The translations under genes and the position numbers were made by a program. The notes under the pieces were generated by a model. The model saw nothing but the letters and a program-made list of their open reading frames with translations. It was not told the origin of the DNA and searched no databases. Shown piece after piece: positions 1-15,147 of a stretch of DNA of 15,188 nt. Origin of the DNA: Candidatus Hydrogenedentota bacterium (GTDB lineage: Bacteria > Hydrogenedentota > Hydrogenedentia > Hydrogenedentales > SLHB01); contig JAWXCN010000039.1 of NCBI GenBank assembly GCA_034408725.1, forward strand, positions 1-15,188. The letters run 5' to 3'. How positions within the stretch are numbered: the stretch's first letter is position 1; every line of letters starts with the position of its first letter.

Positions 1-670
1 GATCGCGCAGCGCCGTGCGCAGCGATTCGAGCGTGCCCGAAAGGCGGCCCAGCGATTCCGTCCGCCGGATGAGTCCGACCACGCTGGCGGTCAAGAACTG
101 GCGTTCAAGCCAGAGCAGGTTATCGTCTTCGTCGGGCGCCTGTTCGGGCGTGTCCGCCGCCTGCGGATAATGCCGCTTGATCGTGTACCACAACGCATCC
201 GGCGTACACATCACGGGCCTGGCCTTGAGCCCCGTGAGGTTCTCCACCTCGTATAGCGCGCGCGTGTTCAGCGGATACACCATCGCGACGGTGAGCATGT
301 GGCCGATTTTTTCCACTGGGAGCAGTTCATGACGCATTGCCATTTCCCGGGGCACGAGTTCGATGCACTCATTTCTTACGTCGTAGTTATGCAAATCGAT
401 AATTCCGACGCCCGCTTCTCGTGCCACGACGCGGATAAAGGTCTGCATGTCGAGATAGCCCAGGCTGATGAGCGTTTTGGCGAGTTTTCCGCCGTGTCGC
501 ATCTGGGCATTAAGCGCATCGTCGAGTTGTTTAGAGGAGATAACACCGGCGGTGACGAGCAGTTCGCCAATCCGCATGGTTTTGCGGGAAGCGTTCCCGA
601 GAGTTGAGGAGTGTTCCTGGACGAAATCGAACGGCGTACTCGTACCATATTTTGTGGCTGGAACCGTCAT
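1..670 (-). CDS. MshEN (c-di-GMP-binding)/GspE-PilB N-terminal domain protein, 3'-truncated by the window edge; possibly continues into an HDOD-like domain
   Basis: Not in the ORF track because it runs off the edge. Manual minus-strand translation is open from 718 to 2: MTVPATKYG...MRIGELLVTAGVISSKQLDDALNAQMRHGGKLAKTLISLGYLDMQTFIRVVAREAGVGIIDLHNYDVRNECIELVPREMAMRHELLPVEKIGHMLTVAMVYPLNTRALYEVENLTGLKARPVMCTPDALWYTIKRHYP... This matches the MshEN motif RLGxxLLxxGxIxxxxLxxxLxxQ and the GspE N-terminal 'LtVAMxdPln' signature. In-frame ATGs are at 715, 691, 670 and 577; 670 is chosen because of the promoter position. Confidence 0.85.
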   Translation of the reverse strand, partial: MTVPATKYGTSTPFDFVQEHSSTLGNASRKTMRIGELLVTAGVISSKQLDDALNAQMRHGGKLAKTLISLGYLDMQTFIRVVAREAGVGIIDLHNYDVRNECIELVPREMAMRHELLPVEKIGHMLTVAMVYPLNTRALYEVENLTGLKARPVMCTPDALWYTIKRHYPQAADTPEQAPDEDDNLLWLERQFLTASVVGLIRRTESLGRLSGTLESLRTALRD

Positions 671-676
671 AAGGTC

Positions 677-705
677 ATTATATAGTACCATCGGTAGTCT
701 GTCAA
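677..705 (-). promoter_or_regulatory. Perfect-consensus sigma70 promoter for the MshEN gene
   Basis: Minus strand reads TTGACA (705-700), 17 nt, TATAAT (682-677), then 6 nt and ATG at 670. Confidence 0.8.
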
Positions 706-734
706 CGTTTTCCATGCTCTAGTCAATAAATTAC

Positions 735-4499: not shown

Positions 4500-5801
4500 C
4501 TACTGGTCCATAAATCCCTTCGTCTGCAACCACTTGGCCTGTTCCGGCCAGAATCCATCGACTCGTCTGCGGAAAGGGAATGCTGCGTCTTTGGTTGCCG
4601 GGAGTTTGACGCCGTGGTCCGCGCCTGGGAACGCGATGATGGTCATGTCGTTGCCCGTTTCAGCCTTGACCTTGTTCAGCATCGCGACGCCTTCCGCGGT
4701 CGGGTTGCTGTCGTCTGCTTCTCCGTAGATGAAGAGCATCGGGATATCCAGTTCCCGGACGACGGGTTCCGGGTCGAAATCCATCACGCGGCGGTACCAG
4801 CGCTGGAAGATCGCGTCCGGCGGCCGGGGTACCCATTCGAGTTTCGAAAACCACGGCTTTTGCCGCATGGGCTGCATCCATTCCAGAAATTCCTGGTACC
4901 CCTGTTCCGTGCGCACAGTGACGTTATAACGGCGCAGCATGTCCACGGCCTCGGCAATGTCCTGTTCCGAAAATCCGTTGGCGCGCAGGGTATATTCGTA
5001 ATCATAAAAGCCTTCCCGTTCGACGAGAGCGGTGCCGCCAGAAATGCAAATGAAATACGCGGTATCGGGGCAGCGCTGGGCGGCAATTTCCATGAGCCAT
5101 CCCGCTTGGCTGATACCCCAAAACCCGATGCGCTTCGGGTCGACGTCGGGCCGTGTTTGAAGATAGCGCAACCCCGCGATTCCGTCGTCCGCGAGTTCGT
5201 TGAAGCCGACGTCTAACCATTTGCCGGTGGACTTGCCGTTGCCGCGCTTGTCGAATACAAGACACACCATGCCATGTCGGGCGAACCAGTCGGCCGGTTC
5301 ATTGTACATCCAGCGATCATTGTCGCCGCTGCCGTGCAACAGCACCACTGCGCCGTGCTTTGCGTTCGCGGCCGGGGCATACACGGCGCCCGCGAGCGTG
5401 ACGTCGCCGTTTGTAAACGTCACCTGTTCGACGGTATACGCCAACGCCGGTTTCGGCGACTTGCGCGCCGCGAACTGCATTGAATGCTTGCCCAATTCCG
5501 CCGTGCCGGCGAGGCTTTGGTTGTCGCCCCGGCCTTTGAGTTCGCCGTCGAACACGAATTGCGTTTCAAATCCGAACCGAGCCTGGAACGTGTTCCGCTT
5601 CACCTCGACAGACCGGAACACGTGTCCCATCCATCCATATTCAGGCAACGAGACACTGCCCGAGACGGTTTCGCCAGTCTCCGTGAATTCCAGGGCGAGC
5701 GGGGTTTCCTGACCGTTGTTTTTCAAGACACCTTGCCAATATCCGGCAACGGAATCCGCGTGCGCGGCGCACGCCGCGAGAATACAAAGTACAAGTCGCA
5801 T
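4500..5801 (-). CDS. Secreted alpha/beta-fold serine hydrolase (peptidase S9/S15-like esterase or peptidase)
   Basis: Signal peptide MRLVLCILAACAAHA; VVLLHGSG, FDKRGNGKSTG, nucleophile elbow GFWGISQAGW, acid residue in YGEADD, His in FPGADH. Confidence 0.9.
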   Translation of the reverse strand: MRLVLCILAACAAHADSVAGYWQGVLKNNGQETPLALEFTETGETVSGSVSLPEYGWMGHVFRSVEVKRNTFQARFGFETQFVFDGELKGRGDNQSLAGTAELGKHSMQFAARKSPKPALAYTVEQVTFTNGDVTLAGAVYAPAANAKHGAVVLLHGSGDNDRWMYNEPADWFARHGMVCLVFDKRGNGKSTGKWLDVGFNELADDGIAGLRYLQTRPDVDPKRIGFWGISQAGWLMEIAAQRCPDTAYFICISGGTALVEREGFYDYEYTLRANGFSEQDIAEAVDMLRRYNVTVRTEQGYQEFLEWMQPMRQKPWFSKLEWVPRPPDAIFQRWYRRVMDFDPEPVVRELDIPMLFIYGEADDSNPTAEGVAMLNKVKAETGNDMTIIAFPGADHGVKLPATKDAAFPFRRRVDGFWPEQAKWLQTKGFMDQ

Positions 5802-5973: not shown

Positions 5974-6603
5974 CTACTGGCTTTCCATAAACTCGTGGGA
6001 AAGTTCGGCGACGGTCCGCGTCATGGGAAACTCCTGGGGATAGCGCACATAGGTCGAATGTCCGTCCGAATACAGGACCGTGGCGCCGAGCGTGCCGCTT
6101 GTGGTCTCCGTCAGGTCGGTCGAAATGAATTCCCAAATTTGCGGGGTCGATTCATCGCGACCCTGAAACGCGGTCATCGGCGGTAACGAATATGTATTGT
6201 CCTCGTATGTTGCCACCAGCGATCCGCCGCTCCATTGCAACGGCGTCGTATTCGCGGGGTCAAGCAACGTGGCGTAGTACGCCTGAAACTCTTCGTCATT
6301 CTTGACGACATACAGCAACTCGCTCGCGATCATCGATTCGTCTTTTCCGAGTTCAAGGTTCTGGCGAAACGCCGCGCGCGCTTCATCCCGGCCGGGAAGC
6401 GGTTCAACGTGTCGTGGCGAGTTGGCATTGTCAGCCATTTTCCCGATTTTATGCTGGCGGAAAGCTTCCTTGCCGGCGACTTCCTCGGCTTTGCGAAGGG
6501 CCTTGGCGAGTGTGGGGAGGTACAACGCCATTAGAATCGCAATAATGGCGACGACGACGAGCGTCTCGATGAGTGAAAAACCTTTTTTCTCGCGCAGTCT
6601 CAT
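5974..6603 (-). CDS. Prepilin-type N-terminal cleavage/methylation domain protein with an H-X9-DG-like C-terminal motif
   Basis: MRLREKKG/FSLIETLVVVAIIAILMALYLPTLAKA is a class III signal with Glu5; C-terminal GATVLYSDGHS. Start moved to ATG 6603 because SD AAGGA precedes it and a promoter candidate covers the longer start. Confidence 0.88.
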   Translation of the reverse strand: MRLREKKGFSLIETLVVVAIIAILMALYLPTLAKALRKAEEVAGKEAFRQHKIGKMADNANSPRHVEPLPGRDEARAAFRQNLELGKDESMIASELLYVVKNDEEFQAYYATLLDPANTTPLQWSGGSLVATYEDNTYSLPPMTAFQGRDESTPQIWEFISTDLTETTSGTLGATVLYSDGHSTYVRYPQEFPMTRTVAELSHEFMESQ

Positions 6604-6623
6604 TCGCGCATCCTTTGGCTTAA

Positions 6624-6652
6624 ACCGTAACACACGGGGGGGATCACGTCAA
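6624..6652 (-). promoter_or_regulatory. Possible promoter for the prepilin-type gene
   Basis: Minus strand TTGACG (6652-6647), 17 nt, TGtTACGGT (TACGGT at 6629-6624); weak -10. Confidence 0.4.
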
Positions 6653-6808
6653 CGCATGCCATGCAGCGGTTTCATCGACCCAATGGCCGTTGGAGGCGCA
6701 AGCGATCAACCCTACAGCCGTTGGAAAGGGGGATGCACGATTCGGTAAGCTGTGCGTTCCGCGCGGCCCGGTCCGGGCCATCAAACTACGAAACGGCAAA
6801 GGCGCTCC

Positions 6809-7867
6809 ATGTCAGCAAAGCACGAGATCATCTTGTCCGGCATTCGTCCAACGGGGCGGCTGCATTATGGGAACTATTTTGGGGCAGTGAAAAGTTTTTT
6901 GGACCTGCAGGAGCAGGGGCACCATTGCTACTACTTCATCGCGGACTACCACGCGTTAACGACCATTGGCGAGCGGGTTGATTTCTATCAGCAAACCGTG
7001 GACATGCTTCGCACCTATATCGCCTGCGGGTTGGACCCCGCGCGCTCGATTATCTACCGCCAAAGCGATTTACCGTCCACGACGGAATTGTGCTTATTGT
7101 TGGGCATGATCACGAACATTGGCTTCCTCGAACGCGGCACGACGTACAAAGATAAAATGGCCAAACTTGCCGCTGACGGAGAAGTCGAAGGCAATCCGCT
7201 GTCGTATGGTCTGTTGGGCTACCCGGTGTTGATGGCCGCGGACATTCTCATCGTGCGCGCAAACACGGTGCCGGTGGGCGACGATCAGCGCCAGCACGTC
7301 GAGATGGCGATGGACATCGCGCAAAAGTTCAACTCACGCTTCGGAGAAACATTGACGATTCCCAAGGCCGTTTCCCGGAACGCCCTTCGGCTTGCCGGTC
7401 TTGATGGCAGCGCCAAGATGGGGAAAAGCGACAACAACACACTGGATTTGTTGGACGTTCCGAAGGCCGTATTGAAAAAAATAAAGGGTGTGCAAACCAC
7501 AACCGACCCCGCGCCACTCGATGCGGCAACTGACGAACCGGACGACGTTATTCCGAAGTTGCCGCCGAGTCTGGCCGCGTTATACCGGATGCTGCATTTG
7601 CTCGCGCCACGCGAGGTGTACATCGACTTTGTTGGAAAATACAGGCGGGGCGAGAAGTTCTACGGGACACTAAAGACGACGCTCGCCGAATACGTGTCGC
7701 AATTCAACGCGCCGATCATCGAACGATATAACGCGCCGGACAATACGGAAGCGTTCGTCCGCGAGTTTCTGCGCGAGAACGCGAAAAAAGTCGCGCCGGT
7801 GGCGTTGGAAACCGTCGAGAGCGTCCGCGCTGCAATGGGGATTGGACGCAGCCTGTATCGCGGATAG
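6809..7867 (+). CDS. trpS: Tryptophan--tRNA ligase
   Basis: ILSGIRPTGRLHYGNYFG (HIGH-like), FIADYHALT, GLLGYPVLMAADIL, VPVGDDQRQHVE, KMGKS (KMSKS-like). Start set at ATG 6809 (MSAKHEIILSG). Confidence 0.97.
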   Translation: MSAKHEIILSGIRPTGRLHYGNYFGAVKSFLDLQEQGHHCYYFIADYHALTTIGERVDFYQQTVDMLRTYIACGLDPARSIIYRQSDLPSTTELCLLLGMITNIGFLERGTTYKDKMAKLAADGEVEGNPLSYGLLGYPVLMAADILIVRANTVPVGDDQRQHVEMAMDIAQKFNSRFGETLTIPKAVSRNALRLAGLDGSAKMGKSDNNTLDLLDVPKAVLKKIKGVQTTTDPAPLDAATDEPDDVIPKLPPSLAALYRMLHLLAPREVYIDFVGKYRRGEKFYGTLKTTLAEYVSQFNAPIIERYNAPDNTEAFVREFLRENAKKVAPVALETVESVRAAMGIGRSLYRG

Positions 7868-7897: not shown

Positions 7898-9382
7898 CTA
7901 CGCGGCGGCGGGGCGTTGCGCAGGTTCTTGAGGGGTTGCTTCGATTTGCTTTTGCCGTGTATCCCGAATGTGTTGGTTGATCGCAATCGTGCGCACGACG
8001 ACGGCGAGCGCAATCAAAAACCAGTACGGTTCCATGATGCGGACGATGATAAAACTCACCGTACCCAGTGAATGGACCGTCAACGCGACCGTGCCGGCGA
8101 AAATCCCGACACTGACGCCTTTCCCAAACCAGTCGCGGGAGAACAGAAACGCCTGGCGGGTTGTTTGGAGCAACCGGAACTGCAAGAAGACGAACGCAAG
8201 GCAACCGATGATCCCCGTCTCGATCAACACGCGGGCATACTGGCTGTCGAGCACGCGGTCCCACGAAACGCCGCCGCCGAGCCAGGGCCAAACGTGCAGG
8301 TTATAGTGGACCTTCTTCCACACGTACAGCCGCTCGCCGGTGGATTTGTCCACCTGTAAACCTGTTTCGTATCCGCCGACGGTTACGTCGTGACCGTGCT
8401 CTCGCTGGAACGTGTAATTCACGCGATCCTGCACGTCGTCGGGCATGATGAACGGGGATGCAACGAGTATCGCGCTGATTCCCGCGATAAGCGCGTACCG
8501 GCGCGTGGCGATGCCCAGCGTAAGGACCCCCGCGATGAATGCGAGGTAGGACGCGCGCGACAACGTGAACAGGAATGGAAAGAACGCGAACAGCACGATA
8601 CCTACTGTAAAAATGCGGTGCTTGCCGATGCGGGCCTGGGTATAAAGCCCGCCCGCGATGCACATCACGAGCACAAGATAGCCGCCCAGCGTGTTGGGTT
8701 CGGTGCCGCCCTGTTCAAATGGAGCACTGACGCGTTCCATGCCGCTGAAAAATCGTGAATGGAGACCATAGAGAGATACAACCAAGGCCACGGCGAAAAA
8801 TAGATAAATCTGTTGCCGGACTTGCCGCAGGCTGCGCACCGCATTGCCCACGAGCACGAAAATCATGTAGAACTCCGCCATCTTCAGCATGGTGAAAAAC
8901 GATTCATGCGTATCGAAGGCCGGCAACGCGCGTTGGTACGCATACATGGTCGAGAGCATGCAAATGCCGTAGTACAAAATAATTCCCGAATTGATCGGGT
9001 TCGGAAGCCACAGCGATTGGCGCCCTTCAAACGCGCACTTCACGAGCACGCCGATAAATACGATAACGATGAGGCCGTCGTTGTAGCGCACATTCAGCGC
9101 GCGATTTCCGATGCCTACCTTGCCCGCGTCAATCTCCGGCGACAACAACATCGCGATGACGAGGAAAAACACGCCGAGGTCCACGCGGAGAATCGTAAGT
9201 CCGAAGATGAGCGCGCTGACCGCGATGGACACCGTGAGCGCGGTGTTCTGCCAGTAACTGTGAATGAACAGCAGCGCCACTGCGGAGACCAGCATGAACC
9301 CCGCGAAGAACGGAAATTCGACGCGGCTTTCGGCCGTCTCGCCGCGACCAATCTGGTAGTCTGGATTACGAAAATTCAGCAT
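7898..9382 (-). CDS. O-antigen ligase/Wzy polymerase family integral membrane protein
   Basis: About 12 hydrophobic segments; Wzy_C-type motifs EPNTLGGYL, FTLSRASYLA, ERLYVWK, DSQYARVLIETGIIG; lies directly downstream of a wzc-like gene. Confidence 0.88.
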   Translation of the reverse strand: MLNFRNPDYQIGRGETAESRVEFPFFAGFMLVSAVALLFIHSYWQNTALTVSIAVSALIFGLTILRVDLGVFFLVIAMLLSPEIDAGKVGIGNRALNVRYNDGLIVIVFIGVLVKCAFEGRQSLWLPNPINSGIILYYGICMLSTMYAYQRALPAFDTHESFFTMLKMAEFYMIFVLVGNAVRSLRQVRQQIYLFFAVALVVSLYGLHSRFFSGMERVSAPFEQGGTEPNTLGGYLVLVMCIAGGLYTQARIGKHRIFTVGIVLFAFFPFLFTLSRASYLAFIAGVLTLGIATRRYALIAGISAILVASPFIMPDDVQDRVNYTFQREHGHDVTVGGYETGLQVDKSTGERLYVWKKVHYNLHVWPWLGGGVSWDRVLDSQYARVLIETGIIGCLAFVFLQFRLLQTTRQAFLFSRDWFGKGVSVGIFAGTVALTVHSLGTVSFIIVRIMEPYWFLIALAVVVRTIAINQHIRDTRQKQIEATPQEPAQRPAAA

Positions 9383-9484: not shown

Positions 9485-11731
9485 TTAGAAATGAAACCAG
9501 CGCTTCTTCCGGCGCGTATCGCTGTCGTCGTAGTAGTAATAGTAGTAGTAATAATGGCGGCGCGAGGCTTCGAGTCCGTTCAGTACCACGCCCGCGAGGT
9601 GTGCCCGGGCGCTGTCGAGAAGTTTCTTGCCGCGAATGACGGTTTCGCGCCGCGCGTACTTCACGGACAACACGAGGACGCAGGCATCGACTTCTGTCGC
9701 AAGCAACACGGGATCGGTGACGACGAGCATGGATGGCGCGTCGCAGATGACCAGATCGAATTCGCCTTCAAGCTGGACCATTAGTTTCCGCATGCGGTCC
9801 GAACCGATCAGCTCGGAGGGATTTGGCGGCACACGCCCACTCGAAATGATCCAGAGATTGTCGACGCGCGTCGGCCGGATCACGTTGTGTACGTCAAAAC
9901 CCTCGCGCAGCACGTCTGCAAGGCCGGGCCCACGGTCCGTCTTGAGCACGTGGTGAACGTGCGGGCGGCGCAGGTCGGTGTCGATAATGAGCACGCGCAT
10001 ACCGCTGTCGGCGAACGTCACTGCCATGTTCACCGCCGTTGTCGTCTTGCCTTCGCCGGGCACCGCGCTTGTCACCATGATGCTCTTGGGCTTGATGTGA
10101 AGCGTCGAAAGCTGGAGGTTCGTGCGCAACGTGCGGTAAGCCTCGGAGATCGGCGACTTGGGATAGTTCTGCGTCACGATGCAAGCATCTACCTCGCTAC
10201 CGTCTGTTAACGGCACGTAATCGCCGCGATACTTTCCGCGGGCGCGCCCGAACCGCATTTGCGGAATCGTGCCGATGACGTCGAGGCCGAGGTATTCCGA
10301 AACGTCTTCGATGTTTCGGATCGAGGTGTCGCTCAACTCGAACATGACCGCAAGGATGAATCCGACGACCAGCCCGATGAACCCTCCGATAACGAAGCTG
10401 AACCAAGGTTTGACCTGCCGCCCAGATGGCAGCTCGGCGGACATTGTCGCGCCCTGGCGTTCGACGGAGCCCTGCTCGCGGCTGAGTCCCGTCGCAATCT
10501 GAAATTCCTTGTCCAACAGCGCATTCAACTGGTTGCGCAATTGTTCCGTCTTGCGGACCAGGTTTTGGTAATCCTTGTCCTTCTCCGCAAGCGCGGGGAT
10601 CATGCTTTCCAGTTCGTTAATGAGCTTGCGGTTCGTCGAAGTCTGAATGTCGAGCGACGTGAGCTGCAACTGTAAACCGAGATACTGCTCGCGCAAGCTA
10701 CGCCGGTCCTCGAGCACGTTGCGGCCCGCGCTCGAACCCGAATCCACTTCCTTCATTGCCTGAAGGATTGCCTGTTCTTTTTCCTGAATCTCCGCTTCGA
10801 GTTCGGCCAACGGCCCCTGGCTGGGTTGCCACACCACGGAAAGCTGAATGCGTTGTGTATGGAGCTTGTTTAGTTCTTCAAGCAGGTTCGCGATGACCTC
10901 GTCGGGAATTTGACCAATGGAGAGCGGCAGCGACTCATTTTTCGCGCGCAACTGCTCCTCGATGTTGAGCATCTTCGCATGAATTTCTTCCTGGGTCGTT
11001 TCAGTGTTGATCACGTCCTGCGTCAACGCCTGCATTTCTTCCGTCACCTGTTCCTTGGTGCGGAAACCCATGTCCTTGCGATATTGCCAGAGTTCGTTGT
11101 CCGCGCGATCCAGTTCGCCGCGCAGCTCATCCAGTTTTGTGACGACGAACCGGTGCGTATCTTCTTCTTCCTCGCTCAGAAACTGCCGGTTGCGGTCAAT
11201 GAACACGCGCGCGCCGAACTCGGCCATGCGTTTTGCGTCTACCTCGCTGGCTCCGTGCGCGGTGATGCGAATCATTCCGCTTTCCTGTATCGGCTCTACA
11301 GCGAGCAGGGCTTCGACGTCCGCGACCTTTGTTGCGAGTTCCTCCTCCGTAACCACGGATGCAAACGCGCGGCCATCGGATATGTCCTGCTGGATAAGCG
11401 CGCGCGTTACGTCCTCGGCTACGCCGCGCCGGCTGACGCGGTCCACGAGTGCCTGCGGCGAGGATTCGAATAGCGGTTTCCCGCCCACGTCCCGGAGTAG
11501 CGCGCGTTCCCACGGCGACTGGCGCACGATGAGGTCCGCGGTCCCTTGGAATTGCGGACGCAGCTTGAAGGCGTACATGCCATAGACGCCGTAGACAAGC
11601 GATGCGACGACCGCGAAGATCGCGATCATCTTCCAACGGCGCAGCGCAACGCTGAGAACAAACCGGAATTGGTTCTCGCGCGTGCCCGATTGTTGGGCTG
11701 CCTGTTCGAGGGCTGCGGTTTCGCTGGCCAT
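9485..11731 (-). CDS. wzc: Polysaccharide co-polymerase/tyrosine autokinase (Wzc-type, PCP-2a; GumC plus CpsD/CapB domains)
   Basis: Two TM helices flanking a long coiled-coil periplasmic region; PKSPISEAYRTLRTNL, Walker A VTSAVPGEGKTT, Walker A' IIDTDLRRP, PPNPSELI, Walker B VICDAP, C-terminal Tyr cluster. Start set at ATG 11731, 7 nt after the upstream stop. Confidence 0.93.
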   Translation of the reverse strand: MASETAALEQAAQQSGTRENQFRFVLSVALRRWKMIAIFAVVASLVYGVYGMYAFKLRPQFQGTADLIVRQSPWERALLRDVGGKPLFESSPQALVDRVSRRGVAEDVTRALIQQDISDGRAFASVVTEEELATKVADVEALLAVEPIQESGMIRITAHGASEVDAKRMAEFGARVFIDRNRQFLSEEEEDTHRFVVTKLDELRGELDRADNELWQYRKDMGFRTKEQVTEEMQALTQDVINTETTQEEIHAKMLNIEEQLRAKNESLPLSIGQIPDEVIANLLEELNKLHTQRIQLSVVWQPSQGPLAELEAEIQEKEQAILQAMKEVDSGSSAGRNVLEDRRSLREQYLGLQLQLTSLDIQTSTNRKLINELESMIPALAEKDKDYQNLVRKTEQLRNQLNALLDKEFQIATGLSREQGSVERQGATMSAELPSGRQVKPWFSFVIGGFIGLVVGFILAVMFELSDTSIRNIEDVSEYLGLDVIGTIPQMRFGRARGKYRGDYVPLTDGSEVDACIVTQNYPKSPISEAYRTLRTNLQLSTLHIKPKSIMVTSAVPGEGKTTTAVNMAVTFADSGMRVLIIDTDLRRPHVHHVLKTDRGPGLADVLREGFDVHNVIRPTRVDNLWIISSGRVPPNPSELIGSDRMRKLMVQLEGEFDLVICDAPSMLVVTDPVLLATEVDACVLVLSVKYARRETVIRGKKLLDSARAHLAGVVLNGLEASRRHYYYYYYYYDDSDTRRKKRWFHF

Positions 11732-11738
11732 GCTCGTA

Positions 11739-13265
11739 TTAGTCTCTACGGGCCTCGTTGCGCGACACGGGCACACCGATCGCCGGGCCGACGATTTCGG
11801 ATTTGGCCGTCACATCCAGCATGCGGTCCCACGTAACCGATTCCGGCGTGTCATGGACCGTCGGCGTAAGGAAAACCATGAGTTCCGTTTGGGAGCGCGC
11901 TTTCTCAGTATGTTTGAACAACTTGCCCAGCACCGGCACACTGCCGAGCCCCGGCACCTTCTGTTCGATGTTGCGCAAATCATTCCGATAGATACCGCCG
12001 ACGACCAGTGTCTGTCCGTCACGCACGTTCGATTCTCCGGTGTAACTCCGCACGGAGCGGATGGGCACGCCATTGTTCGAGCCTGACGGAAACGACACTT
12101 CGGGTTTGAATTCCAGTTTCACGTAAGGGCCTTTGTCATCGCGATGCACATGCGGTGTCACGACCATCTTGATGCCCAGATCGAGAAAGCGGGTCGAGAA
12201 ATTTGCGCGGCCCGATACTTCGGTGCCGAATTCCGTGTAGGGGAATTCGTCGATCATTTTGATTTCCGCTTCTTTGTGGTTGACCGTCAGAATGTTTGGA
12301 TTGGCCAAAAGCTCGGCATTGTTGTCTGCAACAAGCGCGTCGATCATGAGGCCGAGGTCGATATGCTCATTTAGCAGGCCGAGAAAGAGCTGGCCCGTCT
12401 TCGGAATTTGCAATGGGATATTCACCCGGCGATCAAAGTCCGGATCGTCCAGGAAGCGGCGGGTAATGTTGCTCAGCGCGTCGCCTGCGCCGCCGTTGTC
12501 GTTGTTTATGATTTCATTATTCAAGGGCGAGGCCGCTTGACCCTTGAGCGAATTGATGCCTACGTCCTGCGATGGCATCGGGTAATATCCGGCGCCTACC
12601 TCGTTACCCTGCACAAACCAGCGGACTCCGAGTTCTTTGAGCGCGCCGACTTTTACCTCGGCGATTTTTGCCTCGATGCGGACCTGCTGCAACTGGCTTT
12701 GCATTTGATCCAGCCGCGATATAATGGAGAGCATGTTCTGAATCGTTGTGGGCGTGTCAGTGATGATCAGGGTGTTAGTGGTTTCGTCGTGGCTGATGCT
12801 GCCGCCTTCGGTCGTCATGCCGTCCAGCGCCGTCCGCAGGGTTTCCGCGTTCGAGTTTTGCAGCGGCAGTAATTCCGTGCGCATCTCTTCCGTGCGATAG
12901 CCAACGTTGTAGCCGGGCCCGCTACGCGACACCTTCACGCGAGGATTACGCAGGATGGCCGACAGCAGGTTTGCCACGCGGTCCGCCGCTTCCTGTTCGC
13001 TTAATCCCGCAATGGTGACCGAGCCCGCGTACGGCAGTATGATGTTGCCGTTCGCGTCCACTTGGGTGGTCGTCGACATTTCCGGGCGGCGATACACGTC
13101 GATATAGACAAGGTCGCCTGGCAAGATGCCGCCGTTCTGGGCCGGTTCTGGCGCGACGATGACTGGCGGATTGATCCGCGACATCGGCGAAGGTTCTTCC
13201 GCGCGCGCTCCGCAAGAAAAAGCGAGCAGGGTGGCCAGCGCCACTTTCGCAAATGTTGGTTTCAT
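11739..13265 (-). CDS. Hybrid protein: Wza/OPX Poly_export domain + secretin N3-type domain + type II/III secretion-family secretin domain (about 508 aa)
   Basis: Signal peptide ...ARA/EE. aa ~46-113: ILPGDLVYIDVYRRPEMS...VDANGNIILPYAGSVTIAGLS...LRNPRVKV (Poly_export). aa ~128-187: TELLPLQNSNAETL...SISHDETTNTLIITD...IISRLD (Secretin_N). Then QVRIEAKIAEV...ELGVRW, LLANPNILTVNHKEAEI, LGIKMVVTPHV, VRDGQTLVVGG, KVPGLGSVPVLGKLF, TELMVFLTPTV (secretin). SD AAGGAG at 13276-13271; alternative ATG at 13268. Confidence 0.9.
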   Translation of the reverse strand: MKPTFAKVALATLLAFSCGARAEEPSPMSRINPPVIVAPEPAQNGGILPGDLVYIDVYRRPEMSTTTQVDANGNIILPYAGSVTIAGLSEQEAADRVANLLSAILRNPRVKVSRSGPGYNVGYRTEEMRTELLPLQNSNAETLRTALDGMTTEGGSISHDETTNTLIITDTPTTIQNMLSIISRLDQMQSQLQQVRIEAKIAEVKVGALKELGVRWFVQGNEVGAGYYPMPSQDVGINSLKGQAASPLNNEIINNDNGGAGDALSNITRRFLDDPDFDRRVNIPLQIPKTGQLFLGLLNEHIDLGLMIDALVADNNAELLANPNILTVNHKEAEIKMIDEFPYTEFGTEVSGRANFSTRFLDLGIKMVVTPHVHRDDKGPYVKLEFKPEVSFPSGSNNGVPIRSVRSYTGESNVRDGQTLVVGGIYRNDLRNIEQKVPGLGSVPVLGKLFKHTEKARSQTELMVFLTPTVHDTPESVTWDRMLDVTAKSEIVGPAIGVPVSRNEARRD

Positions 13266-13284
13266 CATATCTCCTTCCCAAGGG

Positions 13285-15147
13285 TCACGGTTGCGGGACC
13301 ACCGGAATACTGAGTGGTTGTTCTTCGAGTCCGTTGTTGCCGGCGTCGGCATCCAATTCCGGGGCCGGCGCGGCAGGCGTGCCAGTAGGAGCCACGGCCG
13401 ATTCGGCGATGGGTTCGAGTGGCCCAGGGGTTTCGGCTTCGGGCGCATCAACGGATAAATCTAGCGCTTCCATTGCCGGGGCCATGCCCGGTTCGCCCTG
13501 GAGGCGCTCGCGCAATACATCAAGTTGCGAGCGGATGGCCTGTTTGTTCGAGGGGTCGATGCCCGGCACCTCGAGCGCATGCGTCCAACTTTCGATGGCC
13601 AATTGTTGCAAGCGGATTCGTTTGTCGAGGTCGCTATTCCGATCGGCCAATGACTGATACAGCGACCCAAGTTCCGCATAATCCACGTCGGGGCTATGGT
13701 TATCCTGCGCGCCCGCCGATTGCAGGTAGTACGAGCGCGCTGCTTCTGGATCGCCGATCTTCGCGGATGCCCGCGCAAGCGTGCGCAATGCCGGAACGGC
13801 CGATGCGGGGTCCAGCAAGCGAAGTTCGGGATTGCGCAGAAGCTCGATCGCCTGCTGATAATTCCCCGATTCGTAATTGAGCCGTCCCATCAACGTTTCG
13901 GCGCGCGCTATTTTTGGATGTGTGGGATTGTCACTTCGGAATTGATCAAACAGGCGAAGCGACTCTTGCGCGATTTCCTGCCGATCATCGCTGTCGGCGG
14001 ACTGTTGCATTTGCAGGGTAAACGCGGCGGCGAACTGCGCCTCCGGGCGCAGCGGGTCGGCCGGGTGCATCGCCGCGAATTCTTCGTATAGTCCGGATGC
14101 GCGCGCGTACTCGCCTTGCGCGGCAAACCTCGCGGCCTGATTGAACAACTGCGCGGGCGCGGACATGCGCTGTTGCAACCACATGTAACCGGCATACGCC
14201 CCGGCCGCCAGCATGCAAACGAAAAGCAGGGCGACGGCCAATCGGGCCAGGCTTTCCAGCGCGGGGTGTTTTTTGGGCGTGCGATGGCGCCGTTTGCTTT
14301 GGGTCTTGAAGTCCAGCGCCTCGTCCGGTATTTCGTCCGCGGCCGATTCGAGCGAAGTCATTGCCTGCATCCCGACGATCGGCTGGAGTCCGTGGTCTGA
14401 TTCCAGTTCATCCAACAGCTTTTCCGCCTCTTCAAGATGGGCCGCATGATCGGGCAATACGGGGGCGTGGCGAATGAGCGCCGGCGCTATTGCAGGCGCC
14501 GGTGTTTTGCCAAGGGGTTCGTCAACGATTTCGGCGACAAGTGGCTTGAGGCGCTGCGCTTCCTCCGCTGGTGGCGTATCTTGCTGCATCGGATGCGTGG
14601 GCGCGCATTCAGCAAGCAATTCCTCAATCGGGATTGCAACCGGCGTTTCTTCGCCGGGAGGCGCCGGGGGCAAAACACCCGTGCGTTCCAAACGCGCCAT
14701 TAACGCGGGATCTGTTGGGACTGTCGGGGCGTCTTTTGTGAGATCGGCGATGATGTCCCTCAAATGGGACATCGCCGCCCGGCTTGTCTCGATGGGATCG
14801 ATGTCCTTATTCGATGACACTTGGTTTCTTGTAACCTCTGGCGTCATGTCCGCGTCTACATCGGCGACGCCCTTCTCGAAAAAACTGACCGGTTTTGTAG
14901 CGTCGAGATCGGTGTCGGGCGCGCCCGCATCTCCGGTCGGCATGAGTGGTACGGGCCGCACAAGGCCGCTCATTTGAATGAATTCCGTGTCGGAGCCGCG
15001 TTGCTCTTCGGGCACGCCGCTTGACAAGCGCGGGTCGCCCGCGAACCCCTGGCTGAGCTGCTCCTGGATACGGTCAAACTCGTTCAGAATTTGCTGATTG
15101 TCCGGCATGGGCTCCTGCGGAGTAGGTGGTTCAGAATCGTTGCTCAT
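13285..15147 (-). CDS. Bitopic membrane protein with a long acidic/Pro-rich N-terminus and C-terminal tetratricopeptide repeats (620 aa)
   Basis: Low-complexity aa 1-280, basic patch KTQSKRRHRTPKK, TM LAVALLFVCMLAAGAYAGYMWL (aa ~303-324), then TPR-like helices (LFNQAARFAAQGEYARASGLYEEFAAMHP; AETLMGRLNYESGNYQQAIELL; ALRTLARASAKIGDPEAARSYY). Confidence 0.85.
   Translation of the reverse strand: MSNDSEPPTPQEPMPDNQQILNEFDRIQEQLSQGFAGDPRLSSGVPEEQRGSDTEFIQMSGLVRPVPLMPTGDAGAPDTDLDATKPVSFFEKGVADVDADMTPEVTRNQVSSNKDIDPIETSRAAMSHLRDIIADLTKDAPTVPTDPALMARLERTGVLPPAPPGEETPVAIPIEELLAECAPTHPMQQDTPPAEEAQRLKPLVAEIVDEPLGKTPAPAIAPALIRHAPVLPDHAAHLEEAEKLLDELESDHGLQPIVGMQAMTSLESAADEIPDEALDFKTQSKRRHRTPKKHPALESLARLAVALLFVCMLAAGAYAGYMWLQQRMSAPAQLFNQAARFAAQGEYARASGLYEEFAAMHPADPLRPEAQFAAAFTLQMQQSADSDDRQEIAQESLRLFDQFRSDNPTHPKIARAETLMGRLNYESGNYQQAIELLRNPELRLLDPASAVPALRTLARASAKIGDPEAARSYYLQSAGAQDNHSPDVDYAELGSLYQSLADRNSDLDKRIRLQQLAIESWTHALEVPGIDPSNKQAIRSQLDVLRERLQGEPGMAPAMEALDLSVDAPEAETPGPLEPIAESAVAPTGTPAAPAPELDADAGNNGLEEQPLSIPVVPQP

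Follow-up and report, generated by a model that had tools for sequence, protein, structure and literature searches.

The window analysed here, a 15,188-nucleotide stretch of DNA from a Candidatus Hydrogenedentota bacterium, carries a gene in which a Poly_export domain, known from Wza, is joined to a secretin. This raises the question as to whether a secretin might provide the outer membrane (OM) exit of a polysaccharide pathway. The accessible text of Saidi et al. (10.1101/2022.02.11.480155) distinguishes three OPX classes, all with SLBB domains, and its only main-text "secretin" is the WzpB barrel; the OPX/barrel pair is named a third system in the accessible part of Schwabe et al. (10.1101/2022.04.04.486985). 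The original prediction for this locus listed proteins, pili, phage and DNA as secretin cargo, a list that is incomplete, as PilQ and GspD have been proposed as slime nozzles by Zuckerman et al. (PMC12475490), whose available text does not settle how these nozzles connect with known EPS pathways and closes by asking whether secretins are the OM part of such pathways and how widespread this is. In open-access text, supplements excluded (where the OPX tables of Saidi et al. may include proteins of this kind), we found neither a description of such a fusion nor a report of PF02563 together with PF00263, and the accessible portions of PMC13721041 and 10.1101/2025.01.14.632903 do not mention one. 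A secretin as exopolymer exit has already been proposed; an OPX-secretin fusion is without a report found in open-access text.

The fusion gene and its parts are:

11739-13268, minus strand: Poly_export-N-secretin fusion gene (P0001; 509 aa, one unbroken ORF; Pfam and fold matches)
13200-13268, minus strand: probable Sec/SPI signal peptide (about residues 1-23, ending ARA; judged by eye)
12927-13136, minus strand: Poly_export/PES domain (OPX D1; residues 45-114), class-3-like, without gate loop
12693-12878, minus strand: single Secretin_N domain (residues 131-192; Pfam), in N3 position
12369-12602, minus strand: family-specific insert (about residues 223-300; low pLDDT; 42% mean pairwise identity)
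11856-12338, minus strand: secretin core PF00263 (residues 311-471; Pfam, fold)

The reading frame, originally given as 11739-13265, is indeed unbroken, and the start assumed there is the second of two tandem ATGs (13268 and 13265). All three predicted domains score well above their Pfam cut-offs, with 65.1 bits for Poly_export (PF02563, residues 45-114; cut-off 28), 52.3 for Secretin_N (cut-off 28.2) and 137.1 for Secretin (cut-off 27.5), and the VPxLGxVPxLGxLF motif reported at the outset lies at residues 438-451. Also as stated originally, SLBB and the Wza C-terminal helix are missing: neither SLBB nor Wza_C gives a Pfam match at E<=0.01, and the domain that follows Poly_export is Secretin_N. 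There is likewise no Pfam match to GfcC, the mark of class 2 OPX (KpsD), and no conserved lipobox (regular-expression match in 5 of 74 homologs). The idea that N0-N2 have been replaced agrees with the presence of one N domain only, with Poly_export in front. The label "N3-type" for this domain is right as to position and wrong as to type, its best sequence match being the first KH-like domain of GspD, which we take to be N1. The beta-domain begins at about residue 193, and the insert presumably sits where GspD has its outer lip/cap. Against NCBIfam, the chain scores 205.6 for GspD (cut-off 351) and 189.8 for PilQ (cut-off 284), both below the cut-off, and its N-terminus gives weak matches to EpsE, an XrtA export protein and EpsY.

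An AlphaFold model of the monomer, built from an alignment of 74 sequences, has a pLDDT of 76, with D1 above 90. Residues 46-117 superpose on D1 of WzaB (Z 13.7, rmsd 1.3 over 72 residues) and the D1 region (residues 45-117) also matches that of Wza; residues 126-489 match GspD, pIV and PilQ (Z 13.5-13.8), and the sequence match to GspD reaches E 2e-52. Within the family, mean pairwise identity is 60% for the secretin core and 50% for PES. Databases label the members GspD, PilQ or polysaccharide export protein, which conceals the family.

Could the D1 domain still engage Wzc? According to the accessible texts, the E. coli Wzc arm binds Wza D1 via D99, E102 and Y155 (PMC12881504), with H101, E103 and T154 as alternative Wza contacts (PMC13469938), and in M. 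xanthus R106-R107 of WzaB binds WzcB, R106 being needed (PMC12819527); class-3 OPX proteins are described there as devoid of a gate loop, their gating relying on a separate OM barrel (PMC12819527). The corresponding loops of the fusion are R60-R61-P62-E63 and R107-N108-P109. Residue 107, aligned with WzaB R106, is K or R in all 74 homologs, and residue 63 of the P-E-L loop, aligned with Wza E102, is E or D in 70/74. The Wza D99 position is reversed to Arg in 68/74 homologs, and the WzaB R107 position is Arg in only 4/74, the twin basic pair occurring in the Omnitrophota genome G352 described below. The Wza gate loop is absent, leaving an 11-residue gap in the alignment. On the Wzc side, the arm tip carries an aromatic residue in 35/35 sequences, and that of the PCP of the second lineage (below) reads YTEKHP in 2/2. 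Because such loops are general to Poly_export domains, they point to a retained surface but do not identify a partner. A complex prediction with two PES domains and two Wzc arms (residues 120-375, alignment A3) gave a score of 0.02 (mark 0.32), which speaks neither for nor against such contact.

The genes that accompany the fusion are:

9485-11731, minus strand: wzc, PCP-2a tyrosine autokinase (748 aa; TIGR01007 188.5 bits, cut-off 108)
7898-9382, minus strand: Wzy_C/O-antigen-ligase family membrane protein (494 aa; PF04932 32.9 bits, cut-off 31.7)
13285-15147, minus strand: bitopic TM+TPR protein (620 aa; disordered N-terminus, TM at about 299-317, C-terminal TPR)
C12 58891-59955, off-window, at the end of contig C12: ExeA-like ATPase
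L009:4759-6591 (minus strand) and G000:C12:56748-58526: examples of an FHA-GAF-HD(-GYP) gene

The family operon runs from the ATPase through the TM+TPR protein, the fusion and wzc to the O-antigen-ligase/Wzy-like gene. As the original prediction had it, 7 nt separate the stop of the fusion from the start codon of wzc (ATG, 11731). Wzc has two TM helices, a long helical arm, a Walker A motif (GEGKT), unbroken kinase motifs and an 8-Tyr tail. The modelled Wzy-like protein matches the ligase WaaL best (7tpg, E 3e-7); it is indistinguishable from a WaaL-type ligase and may be either a polymerase or a ligase. The TPR domain of the bitopic protein is probably periplasmic. The ATPase resembles ExeA/TIGR03015 (147-150 bits, below the cut-off of 324.5); because the ends of contigs C12 and C39 (the window) share no sequence overlap, its position beside the operon in the source genome, G000, is deduced from other loci.

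We compared 40 family loci from 39 genomes (L002-L004 being near-identical) with 39 ordinary-secretin loci. The wzc gene lies downstream of the fusion in 39/40 family loci vs. 0/39 controls; the Wzy-like gene is present in 34, the TPR gene in 35 and the ATPase in 28 of the 40, all misses falling at contig ends, and none of the 39 controls has wzc, a Wzy-like gene or PES. Within 10 kb, matches to glycosyltransferases were found at only 2/40 Hydrogenedentota loci (12 queries) and to flippases at 0/40; elsewhere in the genome, the flippase family PF01943 has 5-8 matches in each of four genomes. GspK, GspL, PilM, PilN and PilO are missing from all 40 loci, with PilM present at 19/39 controls; the GspL and PilN absences are weak tests, since both queries also missed all 39 controls. 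A convergent pilT on the opposite strand follows the operon at 10/40 loci and accounts for all 10 GspE matches, and a GspF/PilC-like gene occurs at 1/40. Promoter and terminator scans gave matches at chance level. Upstream of the ATPase, 15 family loci carry the divergent FHA-GAF-HD(-GYP) gene, which hints at c-di-GMP control of the operon. Unrelated neighbours in the window (2-715, 1036-2349, 4500-5801, 5974-6633 and 6752-7867) encode an MshEN-domain protein, an MgsA/RarA ATPase, an alpha/beta hydrolase, a prepilin-like protein and a class I W/Y tRNA synthetase, the last of them encoded convergently to the Wzy-like gene.

Three further OPX genes occur in G000, all of the Poly_export-SLBB type and all adjoining a PCP of their own, and the other OPX genes of G352 likewise sit beside their own PCPs. 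The BBP2 barrel, within the scope of the PF10082 family, is found in 0/4 Hydrogenedentota genomes and not on G352:C2. The fusion is therefore the only OPX-type and the only OM gene of its operon. Of the six other secretins of G000, two belong to GspD loci and one to a pilMNOPQ-like locus, so that T2SS and pili have secretins of their own. The same genome encodes a lipoprotein of the OPX type in which Poly_export occurs three times in tandem and SLBB once (L082, G000:C205:1528-3024), as well as two tandem short secretins (395 and 406 aa) in which no N domain can be recognised (L091 and L092, G000:C273:14154-16558), which lie after a TPR lipoprotein and before lnt-like and murJ-like genes (named by eye) and form very long branches in the secretin tree.

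How widespread is the fusion? A search with residues 1-250 returned 146 homologs, the named ones being Ca. Hydrogenedentota; among the 120 of the 146 matches listed, 116 have all three domains, three are partial and lack the secretin and one lacks Poly_export. At family level (E below 1e-50; ordinary secretins begin at 1e-45), the fusion is present in 67/135 genomes of the phylum and 9/15 families, with one full-length match in 58 genomes and, in nine, matches that are fragmented or truncated at contig ends. Genome scans found the family with an alignment as query and not with a single sequence. In the ESM Atlas, P0001 retrieves only the family's own cluster of 57 members. The family Wzc profile matches 68/135 genomes and the fusion 67, with 66 having both, which we treat as a pattern with no statistic attached because kin genomes are not independent. 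In the one fusion-only genome (G101) the contig ends inside the fusion. Two genomes have Wzc alone: in both, no fusion lies between the TPR gene and wzc and the latter shows decay, with the Tyr tail and the Wzy-like gene gone from G130 and the wzc of G077 lacking a kinase. No Wza replaces the lost fusion in either.

A second copy of the family Wzc, its Tyr tail intact, occurs in some genomes that also carry the main operon (L104:6007-8271, L105:7309-9618 and L107:1317-3314); no OPX or secretin gene adjoins these copies (L107 is cut upstream), and they may share the fusion in trans. At L036:5480-8795 the fusion and wzc are each in two ORFs, from a frameshift or an assembly error. Locus L033, titled archaeon, has an operon nearly identical to that of Hydrogenedentota L017 and is probably a misbinned contig, and several records titled Nitrospirales group within the Hydrogenedentota clade in the tree.

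A D1+N profile run against 1.84 billion representatives retrieved P0239, which has the same three domains; its relative P0284 is 31% identical to P0001. This second lineage comprises one Omnitrophota genome (G352) and one metagenome contig (L093). The contig, which encodes P0284, carries glycosyltransferases, a sensor kinase, a regulator, TM+TPR and a small ORF, then the fusion, a Wzz-like PCP, a CpsD/CapB kinase with a Tyr tail, a radical SAM protein, wzm, wzt, a methyltransferase and further glycosyltransferases. The same fusion-PCP-kinase cassette lies on a 51-kb contig (G352:C2) full of glycan genes, among them two for Wzy_C proteins and one for Wzz. Since G352 has, on another contig, an ordinary barrel-OPX-wzc-Wzy_C cassette, the fusion fills the slot of barrel plus OPX. 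No ExeA-like ATPase lies beside the lineage-2 fusion. Where lineage 1 has a disordered N-terminus and a separate ATPase, the TM+TPR protein of this lineage (L101:16707-19385, L093:7526-9418) carries an HATPase_c_4 region on the cytoplasmic side, joined in G352 by Schlafen AlbA_2. Among 401 Omnitrophota genomes one has the fusion, two further matches being D1 only. Three other phyla, represented by 75, 12 and 168 genomes, gave no fusion at E<=1e-19 with the A2 profile, which detected that of G352 at 2e-23. P0239 retrieved only ordinary secretins from the ESM Atlas. A further candidate, P0227, was rejected as an ordinary N0-type secretin, and P0122-P0268 include many proteins of 2,000-5,500 aa that match the Secretin_N part 15-35 times. 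In a tree of secretin domains computed by a quick method, the fusion forms its own clade apart from GspD, PilQ and pIV; each lineage has support 100, and the two are sisters at an SH-aLRT of 92, a weak value in a tree that carries a long-branch warning and has outgroups picked by similarity (L003, L004, L014, L036, L039 and L040, duplicates or fragments, were omitted). One shared origin of the lineages is likely. The fusion is real, and in two phyla it is conserved and linked to PCP-2 genes.

Judged by domain content and neighbouring genes, the fusion fits none of OPX classes 1-3, T2SS or T4aP. It has the Poly_export/D1 of an OPX protein and not the SLBB of classes 1-3, which the three other OPX proteins of G000 do match; it has the PF00263 beta-domain, adjacent N domain and amphipathic motif of a secretin; and, as a mark of Wzx/Wzy pathways, a PCP-2 with tyrosine kinase is present (TIGR01007 above cut-off). 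Like class-3 OPX (WzaB-WzpB-WzcB, EpsY-EpsX), it shows the D1 fold with no gate loop, no C-terminal membrane helix, a basic residue at the PCP-binding loop and a gene slot directly before the PCP. Unlike class 3, it has neither SLBB/D2 nor lipidation, and its channel, a secretin, forms one chain with D1 instead of being a separate monomeric 18-stranded barrel, the barrel neighbour being absent and the fusion adjoining the TPR gene and wzc. With E. coli Wza-Wzc (class 1) it shares D1 with the PEL loop, a Wzc with Walker A and Tyr cluster and the adjacent Wzy-like gene, but it lacks D2/D3, the Wza_C helix, the 11-residue gate loop and the lipobox, and with them the octamer-forming parts. The N domain, beta-domain and amphipathic motif are those of GspD, PilQ and pIV, whereas the N0-N2 or AMIN domains of GspD and PilQ are replaced by Poly_export and co-oriented T2SS/T4P core genes are missing from fusion loci. 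GspD of T2SS differs further in having N0-N1-N2-N3 as against one N domain, in the TIGR02517 cut-off that the fusion falls below, and in its linked partners gspE/F/K/L (at fusion loci, GspK and GspL 0/40, GspF-like 1/40), and T4aP PilQ in having pilMNOP directly upstream (PilM 0/40 vs. 19/39 controls). The slime nozzles of cyanobacteria and myxobacteria are likewise secretins proposed as exopolymer exits; unlike the fusion with its OPX domain and dedicated wzc operon, they are, in the accessible text, PilQ/GspD of the ordinary kind that also serve pili or protein secretion and whose link to synthesis is not established (PMC12475490). XrtA/PEP-CTERM and Sphingomonas promonan EPS loci also have an AAA+ ATPase beside OPX/PCP genes, but those use OPX plus barrel, and exosortase is not required here.

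As it is always beside sugar-chain export genes, the fusion is probably an undescribed polysaccharide exit, and gene context and domain content together make it quite likely that the secretin serves as the OM exit of a Wzc-type (PCP-2) glycan pathway. It probably works like a class-3 OPX protein plus barrel in one chain. After Sec export, the protein would form a secretin ring, for which the fold is seen in the model and about 12-15 subunits are expected. The single N domain would act as a periplasmic collar from which the OPX D1 domains hang, in the place taken by N0-N2 in GspD. Wzc would contact D1 with the tips of its helical arms, in the manner of Wza-Wzc and WzaB-WzcB, the eight arms engaging part of the D1 modules; a non-octameric D1 ring is plausible because soluble class-3 WzaB occurs as a monomer. 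The Wzy-like enzyme would make the polymer within the Wzc cage, and this polymer would then pass the ungated D1 layer and the secretin gate, which would replace both the Wza helical barrel and the class-3 beta-barrel. In Hydrogenedentota, lipid-linked repeat units would come from glycosyltransferase/flippase loci elsewhere, and, more tentatively, the ExeA-like ATPase and the membrane TPR protein would probably assemble or position the secretin. "Wzy-dependent", as the original prediction had called the polymer, goes too far, given an operon devoid of flippase and glycosyltransferase genes, the ambiguity between Wzy and WaaL, and the Wzm/Wzt genes adjoining the lineage-2 cluster. Several points count against the exit reading. 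An octameric Wzc would have to meet a larger secretin ring, a symmetry mismatch; docking residues are partly conserved, pilT is near 10/40 loci, glycosyltransferases are few (2/40) and flippases missing (0/40); the three other OPX loci of G000 could export its glycans; and the Wzy-like model matches WaaL best.

Three other explanations have to be weighed. A local chance fusion or an assembly chimera with no joint function could be suspected in a fragmented MAG of 280 contigs such as G000, and conservation of the fusion across genomes refutes this: there are 58 full-length matches in 135 genomes and 9/15 families, including two single-contig genomes, and a second phylum carries the fusion. The D1-N junction (12884-12927) is also spanned by single contigs in 2/4 microbial-mat runs (X2 12575-13035, X4 12725-13030), which may share a campaign with the window. 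We regard this explanation as ruled out, with a chance close to nil. None of the four outcomes named originally as fatal to the prediction was found when examined: the N-terminus scores as Poly_export (65.1 bits), the junction is kept across at least 58 genomes, homologs stay beside wzc (39/40) and the Wzy-like gene (34/40), and the cluster holds no other OPX or barrel. Alternatively, the glycan might stay lipid-linked or periplasmic, or leave via another OPX protein, with the secretin acting as a Wzc scaffold or regulator or as a small-molecule pore. Other OPX proteins are indeed present in most fusion-bearing genomes, and a scaffolding role has precedent because, in the accessible text of PMC13469938, Wza stabilises the Wzc octamer. 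However, the other OPX genes of G000 and G352 each have their own adjoining PCP, the whole secretin core is conserved (60% identity vs. 50% for PES) and wzc decays where the fusion is lost, and we judge this explanation unlikely.

The secretin might also pass a protein, glycoprotein or pilus-like filament that the Wzy-like ligase glycosylates, D1-Wzc coupling glycosylation to secretion. The Wzy-like fold nearest WaaL, the lack of glycosyltransferases at most Hydrogenedentota loci and pilT near 10/40 loci would all fit, as would a resemblance that we assume between the ExeA-like ATPase plus TPR and the MSHA mshL-M-N genes. Yet the 40 family loci hold no GspK, GspL, PilM, PilN or PilO, with PilM at 19/39 controls, GspD and PilQ are encoded in G000 at loci of their own and beside their own partners, exosortase is missing in 3/5 fusion-bearing genomes examined, and lineage 2 lies within glycan clusters. 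Moreover, according to the accessible text of PMC11340318, EPS production in Sphingomonas LM7 depends on both a Wzy of the O-antigen-ligase family and an AAA+ ATPase. Such a role appears improbable to us.

We thus favour the secretin as a glycan exit, and its fuller form seems reasonably probable: a dedicated polysaccharide-exporting secretin of single origin, and with it a novel type of secretin machine, in which an octameric Wzc pushes the polymer across a larger gated ring with no pseudopilus and which takes Wzy-type or ABC-fed glycans. The original prediction counted this as a third OM channel class; with the OPX/beta-barrel pair already named third (10.1101/2022.04.04.486985, accessible part), it would be a fourth exit beside the Wza, synthase-barrel and OPX/barrel routes. 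If true, secretin systems would gain a machine for non-protein cargo, and the symmetry mismatch and the opening of the gate in the absence of a pilus would pose a clean question. As the coupling domain and the secretin share one chain, the fusion offers a direct, testable case for the question with which PMC12475490 closes.
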